Shown: positions 21,001 through 27,000 of the stretch, piece by piece
How the letters are laid out: the number at the start of each line of letters is the position of its first letter
Numbering within the stretch: the stretch's first letter is position 1
Source of the DNA: a virus
Lineage: Duplodnaviria > Heunggongvirae > Uroviricota > Caudoviricetes
IMG/VR virus record: IMGVR_UViG_2522572023_000011
Direction: 5' to 3' (one strand)
DNA length: 43,570 nt
Program-made: the position numbers

Positions 21001-24000
21001 TCACGCGGAACAGGAATATGGCTTACCGCCTCTTTCACCATCTGTTCAAGCATCGGACGCACATCATCGGGGGTAATACTTTTGCCGTCCGCCGGTACCG
21101 GAATATTCGCGACCGCATCATTCACCGCCTTCTGCAGTACTTCCGGATCGTAATCACGACCATCACGCGGAACAGGAATATGGCTTACCGCCTCCTTCAC
21201 CATCTGTTCAAGCATCGGACGCACATCATCGGGGGTAATACTTTTGCCGTCCGCCGGTACCGGAATATTCGCAACCGCATCATTCACCGCCTGCTTCAGT
21301 ACTTCCGGATCATAATCACGACCGTCACGCGGAGCAGGGATATGGCTTACAGCCTCTTTCACCATCTGTTCAAGCATCGGACGCACATCATCGGGGGTAA
21401 TACTTTTGCCGTCCGCCGGTACCGGAATATTCGCAACCGCATCATTCACCGCCTGCTGCAGTACATCCGGATCATAATCACGACCATCACGCGGTACCGG
21501 AATGGCCCCCACAGCATCATCCACCATCGCCTGCAGAACCGGACGCACCTCATCCACCGTCACATGCTTCTGTAATACCGCCGACAGGGAAGTCAGTTTC
21601 TCTTCAAACGCTTGTGCCTGCGAGGCCATCTTCCCCTCAAATGTGCGCTGTAAATCCGCCAGCACCGTGGAGAATTCTTCTCCCAGTGCACGAATAATGG
21701 ACAGTTCCCGTTCCGTCATTTTCGCAGTATCCCCCTCAACATCGCTTTCACCGCACCATGCTCTGTTTCACTGATTGCCTTATTACCGTCAGATGCGCCG
21801 TCAGGCAGTTGGGCTGAAACTCTTTTCCCGGACGACGCAAACGGATCTTCACGGGCATCACGACGGGACAGCGCCTCCAGACTGTAGTTCTGCTGCTGAA
21901 GATACAGTGCATCACCGCCGGCAAGGGGCGGCAGGTTCTCACGTTTACGGGCCTCATTGGGCGTGAGAAGCGTATTTTTCACCGACTCACCCAGCGTTTT
22001 CATGCGCCGTTCGCTGTCCATTCTCAGCAGCGTGGTGACGTCAAACTCCGTACTCTCGTTTTCCCCCGTTTCCAGCGCCTCATCCAGTAACAGTTCAATG
22101 GACTCAATCAGCGTCTGCAGGCACTGGGAATAATACTGCTGCTCCAGCGCCTCCACGTTGTCACTGGAAGGTGGCTGGCCAACGCCAATCTTGTAGGCCG
22201 GGACACGGAACACCGAACAGACAATTTCAGCGGTCATCTTCAGTTGTTCCACCGTCTGCGCATCCACCGGTGAAAACGTCGTGGGGTTGTATTTTGCCCC
22301 GTTGCTCAGAATGGCCGTTTTCCCCGCATTTTCGCCGGTATACCCGCTGTCCCAGTTGCTCTTCAGTTTTTTCGCATTTTCTTCCGTAATACTGCCGGGG
22401 ATCTCAATCACCCCGGACGGCCTGCCGCCATTTCTGAAAAAAGACGTCGAATTTTCCTGAATATGATGCCCCTGCGTGGCCGCCAGCCCGGCAGCATACA
22501 CCGGCGGCAGCCCCACAAGCGGATGAAAAAAACAGTTAAACCGGTCGTGGATCACTTCCCTGGCAGGCACCGTCACCGCCTCCGTGATCCCGCAGTTCCG
22601 GTCCGGTGTAATGCGATAGAACACCTCGCCGTCATCCGCCACCAGAGGTTCAACCCGGCTCCAGTCCAGAATACGCAGTTCTTTGATCTGCCCCCGGGAG
22701 TTACGGATTTTCAGCACCACCGTATTGCCGTGACGCAGTTTGGCGTTCAGCCACAGTTCAAAAAACTGGATACGATTCTGCTGTGCATTGGGACGACGAC
22801 AGAGACGGGCAATATCCCCCTGCCGTTTTTCACGGCGGATCCCCTGTGTATCCGTCTGCATCAGGCGCAGCCGCATTTTGGCGATATCCTGGGATATCAG
22901 CGAAATGCAAGAAAACACCGCATGAAAGGAGAGGACACTTTCCGGATCGGCTTTCACACCCTGCTGCCAGGCGCCGGCAAAGGGCTCAACCACCGCCTGA
23001 AACAGGCTGGTCCAGCCCACCTCTTTTACATCACGTCCTGATTTCTGGTTTTTTCGGGTTCGTCGCAAAAAGTTCCACATTCGCTATGCTCCGCATCATG
23101 TTTCTTTTTCTGACCCGCCGGACGTCGCGCTGTGATGTACTCCGCCTTCCTCAGGCGAACCAGCACCTCCGCACACGGCTGTGCGACATCACGGATATCC
23201 CCGGCCCGGCCATCATGCGTGCCCTGCAGATATCGGATCTTTGCCATAACCTGTTACGGGAGGCGCACGCCTCCCGTCCTCCTTATCAGACTCAGCCGCC
23301 GGACGCACTGCCGTAGTTCACTCCGGTGATCACCGCCACCGCCGCGGTACGGCGACGACGCCAGTTGATCCAGCGCTCCGCACGGATGGCCACACTGCCT
23401 GTCTGGAACATGGAAACCAGCTCCACCGGCGACGGTGTGGTGCTGTCGCCGCCCGGCTCAGACTGCATTTCCAGTGACGCTTCACGGGACATATCCACTG
23501 CCACACCGCCGTCATCCGCCAGATAAATATCCGGTGCATTCACCAGTACCAGCTGGTCACCCACGTACTGGGAGACAATCACCGGAAGCCCCTGAAAGGT
23601 CCCGCCCAGCAGGGTCATGTCCGGATATTCCTTCTGACCCAGCGCATTTTTACGCATGGACAGCGCCAGGGCATTCGTGCTGGACATCAGCCAGACAGCA
23701 CCAGTGGGCTGCAGGTTTGCCGTCACAAACTGGCCAAACGCGGCCTCGGCATCCGCATCCGGGTTACCGGTTGATGCCGTGCCCTTCACATCATGGGTGA
23801 TGGACGCCGGGGAGACATCTGCCACTGCAGCTTTTTTCGGGTCCACAAAGTCTGTGTCCAGACGCGCCACCACCGCTTCTGCCAGCGCATTACGGACCAG
23901 TGCATCAGCTGCCGGACTGGAAAAGCGGATCAGCTCTTCCGTCAGTACCGCAATGGCCGACACCTTCGCATGACTGAAGGTGATGGACTCAAAATCAAAC

Positions 24001-27000
24001 TTCGTCAGGGGTCTGGCCTTACCCTCCCCCACCCAGCCGGCAGCACCGCCGGACACCTGGGCATGCACGCGGATATTGAACGGCACCAGACGAAGTGCAG
24101 GGATCCCGCCCTGACCAAATCGCCCGATAATGGTCTGCGGACGCAGGTAATCAATAAAGTCCTGCGCATATTCCTGATATTCAGACAGGCTGCCTGCCCA
24201 CTGTGGGTCCGTGGTGGTCCCTGCCCCCACCGCCGATTTCAGGACATGATGCAGACGGCTGTCATCCGGATACTGACGACGGGCCACTTCCAGGGCTTCA
24301 GAGCGGACACCTTTAGCCGCGGCCAGTGATTTGGCAAAGCGGGCGAAACCAATCCCCTTCTCCAGTTTCTGCTCAACACGGATCACCGGCGCTGAAGCCA
24401 CCGTGGCCACATTCCCGTTACCGGCCTGTTTCACCGGCTGTGCCGTGGCGGCCTTACCGGCTTCCAGTTCACGCAGACGCTTCAGGTGCGCATCCACCTG
24501 ACGGATTTCCGCTGCGGTGTTGTCGTAGTGCTCTTCCTCTTCCACATCCAGTGTGCGGCCTTCCTCTGCGGCTTTGTTCATGATCTCCTCAAGGGAGGCT
24601 GCCAGCGCCGCACGCTTGTTTTCAAAACTTTTAATCTGTTCACCAGTATTCATTGCTGACTTTTCCTTATGAAAAGAGGTTATTGACTGTGCCGAAGCGC
24701 CGGCAGAAGATGCGATTTTCACCACCGGTCTCCGGTTGCCGGACGCGGCAGAAAACGGGCTGCCGAAAGATTTAATGGTCCGGATGGTGCATTCCGCATT
24801 CGCGGGCACGGTGACGGCAGACACCTCCATCAGCTCCCAGCGCAGAAAATGCAGTCCGCCTCCGTCCAGATAAGTGTATTCATGGGGCCGGAAGCCCACA
24901 GAAAGCCCCCTGACCAGCCCGGTCTTAATGGCAGCCCAGGCCTCATCCAGCCGGGCTGCCATCTGGGAGGGCATCCCCGGCTCCGGCTTCACCAGCATTG
25001 CCGTGATTTCCAGCCCTTCCCTGACCCGACGCACCGTACACTGGCCTACAGGGCGGGAATGGTCATGCTGCCAGAGAAACGGGATCGTACTGCCAAACTC
25101 CGCCCCCTCCGGCTCCAGGATGTCACCATCCCGATCCGGAGAAGGCGTTGACGCAATCCCGGTGATCACCCGTTCATCCTCACTGAAGGATTTCACCGTC
25201 AGCAGGGAACAGGCCCGTTTAAGAGTCACATCAGCCTCCTGAAAATAAAAAAACCGCCGCAGCGGTTCATGATGGTTACAGGGTGAGCAGGGTTATATGA
25301 AAAAAACCTCATACGCTTTCTTTTTCGGTTCCGGATTCAGGGACATCAGGGACACCGCATTGAAGAGCGCCATCAGCGGGTCAATTTTTCCCCGTCCGCT
25401 GGCCTGTTTGGTGATAAGAATGGCGTTACCTTTAGGCTCCACCCGGGCATTGCCAACGCACCAGGCCATCAGTGGCTGACCACCATGCACCAGCACTCCC
25501 TCAGCCAGTTTGCGCTCGGTGGTTTTGATGGCCCCGCCCAGCTTCCAGCCCTGGCTTATCCCCACCACACTCTCATCGGGGATCCCGGCTTCCGCCAGTG
25601 AATCCAGAATCTGCCCCACACCTGACGGGTCAATACCGATATGATCCAGTAACTCAGCCTCATGAATACGACGCACATACTCCGCCACTTCCGCCGTGTC
25701 ATCCCCGACCCGACGGACAATCGTCATGTCTCCACAGGCCACAAAATCCTGAAACCGGGATGCCTCACTCTTCCGTCTGACCACCGCGGTTTCATGCACC
25801 CAGGCATGGCCCCAGCCCAGCCATTCGCGGGTTTCCCTGTCACGGCCAGTCACGTACATTCCCAGCAGATCATCCAGGCCCCCGCCGTCAATCCCCACCG
25901 TCACCACATCAGCGCGCTGCAGGATATCGTCCAGGCTGACGCGCCTGCCCTGCTGCTCCCAGAAATCCGCCCCTGCCCAGCGGTCAGAACGCAGGGCAAG
26001 ACCAATTTCCACATTGGCGTGTTTTGACATGAAACCGCGGAAAGTCTCTTCCCCGGCTTCCCGGGCTTTACGATACTCCCGGTACAGAAAGGCCTCATCC
26101 ACCGAATAGCCGAGATTCGGGTTAACCATGGCGAGGTTTTCCATCAGCAGGTGAGCCCCGCTTTCCACCATTTCAGGAGGATGCTCAAAAATCACCGGCA
26201 GAAAGTGCGGATCATGAATTTTGCCGTCACGGACATCCCGGGCGTACTGCAGTTTCTGTCTGAACACCCCGGCGGGCGGTTCATTCGACTGGGTGGTCGT
26301 ATACACCACAAACCCTTCCGGGCGGGAGGCAAGGCCGCCTATGGCTTCACGTAACATGTCCTCCGCCTTGCACTGCTTGCCAAACAGCCACAACTCATCA
26401 ATCAGCGTACCCACGGACTTGATACCGGACACCGTATTCGGATCGGCTGCCACCACCTTCAGGGTGGTGTCCGTCACCCGGTGGGTGATGGTCCGGATAT
26501 GGGTCTGTACCTGGCAGAGGTCATCCAGATCATCGTCACGTCGTACCATATCCCGGGCAGGGTTGAAGGCGTTGGCCGCCACCTCCACAGTCGGGGCCAG
26601 AATCGTGTAACCCGCCGCCTGCCGCCAGTTCAGTAACAGTGCAGTCATCATGATCCCCGCGGCCAGCGTGGACTTCGAGTTTTTCTTGGGGATAAGGATA
26701 AAAACTTCCTTGATATGGCGTACACCGGTCTGCGCATCGTAGGAGCCAAACAGGGCCGCCACCAGGTCAAACACCCACGGTGCACAGGACTCCCCGAACG
26801 TAGGGCTACCAGGTGCATCCACAATCCGCAGTTGTTTAAAAATCGCCAGGGCATGTGCGGCCTCGTCCGGATAAATCGGATCCGGAATAATCGACAGCCC
26901 CTTTTTCAGGCGCTCTGCCCAGTCCGGGCAGGCTGTGCTCCATACAGGTATCATCCGTTGCCCTCATTATCGTTATTCACCACCAGTCGGGGTGGCGGTG

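Follow-up and report, generated by a model that had tools for sequence, protein, structure and literature searches.

In phage HK97 the head genes run TerS and TerL (the small and large terminase subunits), portal, gp4 protease, gp5 capsid and the connector Ad1. A virus sequence of 43,570 nucleotides (Caudoviricetes; IMG/VR record IMGVR_UViG_2522572023_000011), referred to here in its whole length as the window, seems to break with that order. An original prediction from the sequence proposed that a single polypeptide of 645 amino acids (aa), combining prohead protease, scaffold and capsid protein, is encoded between TerL and the portal gene, and that this layout is unusual. Two questions follow: are the genes what they were taken to be, and is their arrangement peculiar to this prophage? 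Profile searches and comparisons of synteny answer yes to the first question and no to the second. The locus is very probably the head module of a long-tailed lambdoid prophage, of the Shiga toxin (Stx) phage type, of enterohaemorrhagic E. coli, and it represents a known and ancient variant of the HK97-like head. The variant is defined by a protease-capsid cassette directly after TerL, with the portal gene next; in most members the S78 protease is fused in frame.

Gene order and gene identity

All of the late-operon genes in the window lie on the minus strand, and coordinates are those of the whole 43,570-nucleotide (nt) stretch. In the 5' to 3' direction come HNH, TerS, TerL, the 645-aa fusion, an open reading frame (ORF) of 73 aa, portal, a 569-aa repeat protein and the Ad1 connector:

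27806-28171, minus strand: HNH endonuclease; PHROG 589 'HNH endonuclease', E 1e-44, in agreement with the RefSeq annotation
26951-27514, minus strand: TerS, terminase small subunit, 187 aa; Pfam Terminase_2, E 2e-8; PHROG 641, E 1e-68
25293-26954, minus strand: TerL, terminase large subunit, 553 aa; Pfam TerL_ATPase and TerL_nuclease; PHROG 9, E 1e-146
23292-25229, minus strand: protease/scaffold/capsid fusion, 645 aa, GTG start; Pfam, PHROG and NCBIfam profiles
23026-23247, minus strand: 73-aa ORF; RefSeq and phage records; PHROG 829 (function unknown), E 3e-37
21716-23080, minus strand: HK97-type portal, 454 aa; Pfam Phage_portal; TIGR01537
20010-21719, minus strand: repeat protein, 569 aa; its ATG overlaps the portal TGA
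19687-20013, minus strand: gp6-like head-tail connector Ad1; Pfam Phage_connect_1; PHROG 40

HNH endonucleases are the usual partners of HK97-type cos terminases. Further 3' of Ad1 lie the head closure, gp10-like, tail terminator, major tail and tape-measure genes.

The predicted order of TerS, TerL, 645-aa fusion, portal, repeat protein and connector was borne out by ORF and profile annotation, and the predicted span (21716-25229) is exactly that of the fusion gene plus the portal gene. Domain searches identified the 454-aa protein as a portal and found a capsid domain in the 645-aa protein. The portal assignment is firm: Pfam Phage_portal (PF04860) matches with E 4e-81 over profile positions 2-321 of 321, and TIGR01537 portal_HK97 scores 356 bits. 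Because the ORFs are long and the hidden Markov model (HMM) scores lie far over threshold, chance matches are of no concern. The departure from the canonical order is also real. In the HK97 and lambda order the portal gene stands directly after TerL and ahead of protease and capsid, whereas in the window it lies 3' of the capsid gene, which is the order of Pseudomonas phage PAJU2 and the Stx phages (TerL, protease-capsid, small ORF, portal, Ad1). The 73-aa ORF between the capsid and portal genes, annotated in RefSeq, was absent from the prediction.

Distribution and earlier annotation

The 3.5-kb stretch is 100% identical to sequence in E. coli O145:H28 strains RM12761 and RM13516. It occurs in 1,251 of 5,426 complete E. 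coli genomes (23%), in up to seven copies per genome, and identity is at least 90% in all but one of the 1,256 matching E. coli records. At 90-99% identity the 8-kb module has matches in 95 phage records, of which nearly all are Stx1a-, Stx2c- and Stx2a-converting phages, including the genus Sawaravirus of the International Committee on Taxonomy of Viruses (ICTV). The annotations of these phages, as in H46, already name a 'major head protein/prohead protease'.

Beyond E. coli, full-length fusions at 73-77% identity are present in Salmonella, Enterobacter, Klebsiella, Serratia, Pantoea, Kosakonia and others. A library of 1.84 billion proteins yielded 1,133 clusters (50% identity) at E <= 1e-30, and the best 150 of the 1,133 are mostly full-length fusions of 630-680 aa; the length of 645 aa is itself kept in hundreds of 90%-identity clusters and phage records. 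NCBI maintains a curated family, NF045541, named 'prohead protease/major capsid protein fusion protein'. Fusions have also been described in other phages and proviruses: S78-capsid fusions in thaumarchaeal proviruses (PMC6563490), fused capsid and protease in the R. capsulatus RcC phages (PMC8601537), and fused protease and coat genes in Gifsy-2 (PMC12315714). Literature searches for wording on protease-capsid fusions and for head proteomics of Stx phages returned nothing specific. The fusion and the portal-after-capsid layout are thus already known, and a module that is old, widespread and already annotated is ordinary rather than unusual.

Two library representatives of about 1090 aa, P0123 and P0132, have an AAA ATPase domain N-terminal to a full protease-capsid fusion, which may be real or an artefact of gene calling.

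Conservation of gene order

Gene order was compared among 29 loci from species-representative genomes. TerL, the fusion, the portal gene and usually Ad1 occur in the same order in nearly all of them, the exceptions being one locus (L029) in which TerL and portal were not found and two loci that end at a contig end. The order is shared by the gammaproteobacterial loci of Hydrocarboniphaga and Marinobacter at 50-53% identity, by the alphaproteobacterial loci of Chelativorans, Hyphomicrobiales and Caulobacteraceae at 38-44%, and by a betaproteobacterial locus of Snodgrassella at 32%; in a Mesorhizobium locus (45%) the contig stops before the portal position. The order of TerL, protease, capsid and portal is therefore conserved across alpha-, beta- and gammaproteobacterial loci. 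A polycistronic transcript from a leafhopper microbiome carries TerS, TerL, a 1935-nt capsid gene, a 168-nt ORF, portal and connector, and its capsid groups in phylogeny near the clade of BP-4795, 2851 and YYZ-2008 (PMC8156552). Thus the layout can be called unusual only in comparison with the textbook HK97 and lambda order; it is shared by PAJU2, by the Stx-phage clade, by nearly a quarter of complete E. coli genomes and by loci from three proteobacterial classes.

Nor do the fusion and the displaced portal form a single, linked peculiarity. Each possible combination of the two states was found:

Split protease and capsid, portal first: HK97
Split protease and capsid, portal after capsid: Burkholderia phage vB_SBP39; Snodgrassella prophages
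Fused protease and capsid, portal first: Microbacterium phage Jahseh; Gifsy-2 (Clp-type protease)
Fused protease and capsid, portal after capsid: the window; Stx phages; PAJU2

Since all four combinations exist, fusion and portal position are independent traits, and the locus offers a clear case in which protease-capsid fusion and portal relocation are independent evolutionary events in the HK97-like lineage. Relative to HK97, the simplest description of the sequence would be an exchange of positions between the portal gene and a protease-capsid cassette flanked by hairpins. Gene order appears to reflect lineage history and not mechanistic necessity.

The Parasphingorhabdus metagenome-assembled genome represented by L029 presents a separate observation. 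At 7911-9709 of this locus a capsid-like part is followed by a protease-like ORF, the reverse of the usual order; queries with the window proteins detected no TerL or portal nearby.

Anatomy of the fusion protein

Profile matches place a protease at one end of the fusion and a capsid protein at the other. Peptidase_S78 (PF04586) matches aa 48-153 with 33.2 bits (cut-off 21), and Phage_capsid (PF05065) matches aa 386-635 with 54.8 bits (cut-off 24.2). The NCBIfam model TIGR01554 major_cap_HK97 spans aa 204-584 (80.7 bits, cut-off 27.5), and PHROG 617 'major head protein' covers the protein from end to end (E 3e-258). Peptidase_S78 was the only protease match in the Pfam search, which returned no ClpP-type family. 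In an alignment of 131 representatives of 50%-identity clusters, conservation falls into two troughs, at aa 166-195 and 271-285, which separate three parts. The segments of the polypeptide are as follows:

24765-25229, minus strand: protease domain, about aa 1-155; Pfam S78; predicted catalytic His55 and Ser110; predicted local distance difference test score (pLDDT) about 75
24654-24764, minus strand: variable linker, about aa 156-192; gap-rich, conservation minimum 0.24-0.28; disordered in the model, pLDDT about 23
24435-24653, minus strand: delta-domain-like helical scaffold segment, about aa 193-265; AlphaFold helices; TIGR01554 match starting at aa 204
23295-24374, minus strand: capsid region, HK97-type, about aa 286-645; profile matches

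The boundary at aa 286 is simply where the second variable linker ends, not a mapped domain start or cleavage site.

His55 and Ser110 of the fusion align with His65 and Ser114 of HK97 gp4, which we take to be the catalytic residues of that protease, and each is at least 90% conserved among the 131 representatives. An AlphaFold2 model built from 38 homologues, 72-95% identical, has a mean pLDDT of 44 and is usable for the protease and the coiled coil; pLDDT values of 75-81 were obtained for helices 195-222 and 229-261. The best fold matches of the modelled protease are herpesvirus assemblin proteases, with probabilities of 0.93-0.97 and a weak E of 2e-3, and these matches would be weakly consistent with the known relationship of S78 proteases. 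A PDB sequence search with the protease domain alone gave nothing beyond a spurious endoglucanase match.

The capsid region matches the solved capsid protein 9d9w in sequence (E 0.0035), and hhalign aligned it with residues 117-376 of HK97 gp5 at E 8e-4 with a probability of only 24%. A homologue search with a diverse profile of 12 sequences found the same enterobacterial proteins again and no extra diversity. The part of gp4 C-terminal to its protease domain is without a counterpart in the aligned fusion, where the linker and the scaffold-capsid chain stand instead. The S78 domain, the helical delta-like segment and the capsid domain follow one another in one frame, and the predicted single polypeptide of protease, scaffold and capsid is thereby upheld.

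The portal gene and its neighbors

On its 5' side the portal gene adjoins the 73-aa ORF, the 3' end of which overlaps the portal start by 55 nt. This ORF was recovered by tblastn at 45-68% identity in most enterobacterial loci; PAJU2, vB_SBP39 and the leafhopper-microbiome transcript likewise have a small ORF at this position.

On the other side, the TGA of the portal gene and the ATG of the repeat-protein gene share the tetranucleotide ATGA (21716-21719). An ATGA or GTGA overlap between portal and next gene is kept in enterobacterial loci, PAJU2, L025 and L030, and the two genes are probably translationally coupled. In a locus from Candidatus Pantoea communis (L016, 10184-13915) portal and repeat protein are a single ORF of 1243 aa with a Pro/Asp/Thr-rich linker, and the PHROG 2271 'portal' profile (859 positions) covers the two together. 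These arrangements hint that the repeat protein acts at the portal. The repeat protein varies in length, with 569 aa in the window, 407 aa in Stx2a_WGPS2 (L002:8882-10105) and around 340 aa at several further enterobacterial loci; conservation in distant loci (L021, L023, L025, L031) is confined to roughly its final 70 residues.

A programmed -1 frameshift joining portal to repeat protein was considered and rejected as the leading idea: the junction reads CTG CGA AAA TGA, without an X XXY YYZ heptamer. Termination and reinitiation at the ATGA overlap is simpler than a frameshift.

Hairpins around the fusion gene

The fusion gene is flanked by two hairpins:

25241-25268, minus strand: terminator-like hairpin of 7 bp with a GCGG loop region, followed by a T-run; consensus scan and local folding
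23256-23277, minus strand: GC-rich hairpin of 9 bp without a T-run; directly after the fusion stop, folds locally

The first of these lies past the TerL stop codon and ahead of the fusion gene's ribosome-binding site, AGGAGG, and a hairpin with a T-run is found at the equivalent position in enterobacterial, Hydrocarboniphaga, Marinobacter and Pantoea loci. HK97 has annotated putative terminators just before the protease gene and right after the capsid gene. Terminator-like sites in the region number 14, compared with 10.8 ± 3.9 in shuffled sequence; there is no excess, and only the conserved position of such sites is informative, not their count.

At 23247-23283 on the minus strand, an AAGGAGG motif past the fusion stop is split from the ATG of the 73-aa ORF by the 9-bp hairpin. 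The hairpin might bring the ribosome-binding site near the start of this ORF, or it might stabilize the capsid message.

Cross-link residues

In an alignment that is weak overall (hhalign probability 24%) and in which the local motifs match well, the HK97 cross-link residues K169, N356 and E363 correspond to family positions 406, 611 and 618. The window has R406, G611 and E618 at these positions. The two substituted codons are:

24012-24014, minus strand: R406 codon, aligned with HK97 Lys169
23397-23399, minus strand: G611 codon, aligned with HK97 Asn356

The combination K/N/E is kept in 227 scorable family members. In the window and its relatives from E. coli the first position is R or K, the second G and the third E, so that the catalytic Glu (E618) is retained and the Lys, Asn and Glu of HK97-type chainmail are not all present in the window. 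The E. coli clade has probably lost chainmail cross-linking through the substitutions K406R and N611G.

A proposed scheme for head assembly

From HK97 and the tripartite capsid gene of Gifsy-2 we infer how such a protein may build a head. The 645-aa precursor would assemble around a portal dodecamer by means of its C-terminal HK97-type domain, with the N-terminal protease and the delta-like coiled coil facing the interior of the prohead. The Ser110/His55 protease would then remove itself, the linker and the scaffold segment to leave the mature capsid protein. That this protein has about 310 residues, with its N-terminus near residue 335-340, is a guess from a shared AGSL motif: TDPQWAGSL in the fusion resembles DADSAGSL in the HK97 N-arm. 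The HNH protein, TerS and TerL would then package DNA, into a capsid whose size, T=7, is an assumption based on how large the genomes of related phages are. In HK97 the C-terminal tail of gp4 targets the protease into the prohead, and in the window the covalent link between protease and capsid protein would stand in for that tail.

One further feature of the fusion gene bears on this scheme, a candidate start codon at the boundary between linker and scaffold:

24651-24668, minus strand: candidate internal start, in-frame ATG of Met193 (24653-24651) with AAGGAA (24668-24663)

Alternative explanations

A decayed or rearranged cryptic prophage might produce such a layout as a defect or artefact, if one frameshift had merged protease and capsid and another had split the portal. 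We consider this very improbable. In RM12761, which has the identical sequence, the NCBI pipeline labels the portal and the next gene as a pseudogene, 'phage portal protein, frameshifted', and this label could mean a defective copy; the single ORF in L016 points the same way. However, the 645-aa ORF is intact and of constant length across hundreds of clusters and phage records, the portal fills its Pfam profile, the junction between portal and repeat protein is without a canonical slippery heptamer, and Stx phage records, PAJU2 and distant loci retain the two-gene layout with ATGA as the conserved form. A coupled pair in the window that is one ORF in L016 explains why the pipeline sees a frameshifted portal. 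The label is an annotation trap: it declares the pair a pseudogene, yet the two-gene state is the conserved one. Together with this label, three other observations weigh against our identification of the locus as a working HK97-like head module. The HK97 proheadase model TIGR01543 scores 44.8 bits on the fusion, under its cut-off of 59, though Pfam S78 passes its own threshold. The capsid region of the AlphaFold2 model failed (pLDDT <50), so the HK97 fold is argued from HMM and profile matches. The literature searched contained no experimental processing data on this 645-aa protein.

Two other explanations concern expression of the module, and they differ in how far the evidence carries them. 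One holds that the displaced portal is regulatory: with the capsid gene placed first, between hairpins, its message would be stable and heavily translated, and the portal, of which 12 copies are needed, would be expressed at a lower level. The conserved hairpins that flank the fusion gene agree with this proposal, as does the position of the small ORF and the portal 3' of the downstream hairpin. We nevertheless regard it as unlikely, given that putative terminators also flank the protease-capsid pair of HK97, where the portal lies upstream, so that hairpins do not require the portal-after order, and that terminator-like sites are no more numerous than chance, as judged from shuffled sequence. 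The other, whose chances we put somewhat short of even, is that internal initiation at Met193 yields a 453-aa scaffold-capsid product without protease beside the full-length fusion. In parallel with herpesvirus UL26/UL26.5, lambda C/Nu3 and Mu I/Z, the head would then be assembled from mostly plain subunits together with a smaller number that carry the protease, a reading that would refine the explanation given above without excluding it. At the aligned boundary, ATG, GTG or TTG with GGA or GGAGG 5-10 nt upstream is present in 13 of the 14 loci tested, the boundary start ranks first among internal candidates in PAJU2, L006, L016, L019, L030 and L031, and Fisher's combined p over 8 lineages is 2e-4. 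A Met lies no more than 8 residues (mostly 4-5) upstream of the delta-domain anchor in 120 of the 131 representatives, against a linker Met background of 2.7%. Positions -5 to -3 are enriched for K/R, K/E/G and G/E (purine-rich codons), and wherever the motif depends on Gly the codon is always GGA. The separately encoded capsid protein of Snodgrassella begins at the aligned boundary position, and capsid-only proteins in the library begin at about the same place. These sequence signatures could, however, be left over from the start codon of a once separate capsid gene in lineages with repeated fusions, or be the outcome of amino-acid constraint. The motif in the window is moderate (AAGGAA, rank 8 of 47), whereas the full-length start has a strong AGGAGG, and L025 has no start codon at the aligned boundary. 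By our estimate, about 415 full-length subunits would fit into a head without excessive crowding, which leaves no need for a second product. If it exists, the Met193 start would set the dose of protease per head, as in UL26/UL26.5 and lambda C/Nu3, with the capsid protein as carrier, and the scaffold-capsid chain would be the more abundant of the two products.

Comparison with known systems

As originally stated, the finding matters little, as it re-describes a module that roughly one in four complete E. coli genomes carry and whose annotation goes back to PAJU2. The candidate internal start, the loss of cross-link residues, and the coupling or fusion of the portal to the repeat protein bear on head building in medically relevant phages.

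The long-tailed Stx phages (Stx2a_WGPS2 and Sawaravirus; the clade of BP-4795, 2851 and YYZ-2008) have essentially the same module, at 90-99% DNA identity and with the same annotated genes. Unlike those Stx-converting phage records, the window represents a prophage residing in an O145:H28 strain. VT1-Sakai, the Sakai Stx1 phage, is not counted as a carrier of the module, as the annotation of Gifsy-2 ties it to the Gifsy-2-type head.

PAJU2, an isolated Pseudomonas phage (NC_011373, ORF001-ORF008), has the same order of TerS, TerL, fusion, small ORFs, portal, coupled protein and Ad1. Its gp03, annotated 'prohead protease fused capsid protein', is 49% identical to the window fusion over the full length, and is reportedly processed. 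The two differ in several details: PAJU2 has two small ORFs between capsid and portal and the window one; its post-portal protein has 334 aa, shorter than the 569 aa of the window; it retains K/N/E at the HK97 cross-link positions, where the window has R/G/E; and its internal ATG is preceded by a strong AGGAGG, compared with AAGGAA in the window. The host and the remaining genome also differ.

HK97 shares with the window the families of its terminase, portal (TIGR01537), S78 protease, delta-domain capsid (TIGR01554) and Ad1, Hc1 and gp10-like connectors, and in both the protease-capsid genes are flanked by hairpins. In HK97, however, the portal precedes the protease, and protease and capsid are separate genes.

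Among phages with a fused gene, the tripartite capsid gene of Gifsy-2 likewise joins protease, central scaffold-like region and capsid in one polypeptide, according to the account of Effantin et al. (2010) given in PMC12315714. Its protease is Clp-like (annotated Clp protease), in contrast to the S78 protease of the window fusion, which has no N-terminal ClpP-like protease, and its portal precedes the fusion, as in lambda. The actinobacteriophage Jahseh (Microbacterium phage, cluster EE) also has one gene, 'major capsid and protease fusion protein', but there the portal comes before the fusion, the sequence is distant, and a Ser is aligned at the position of the catalytic His.

The nested genes UL26/UL26.5 of herpesviruses, C/Nu3 of lambda and I/Z of Mu resemble the window in that a protease is joined to a scaffold, and, should the internal start be real, in having a shorter in-frame product. 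They differ in that the window polypeptide also contains the capsid protein and that its internal start is a candidate.

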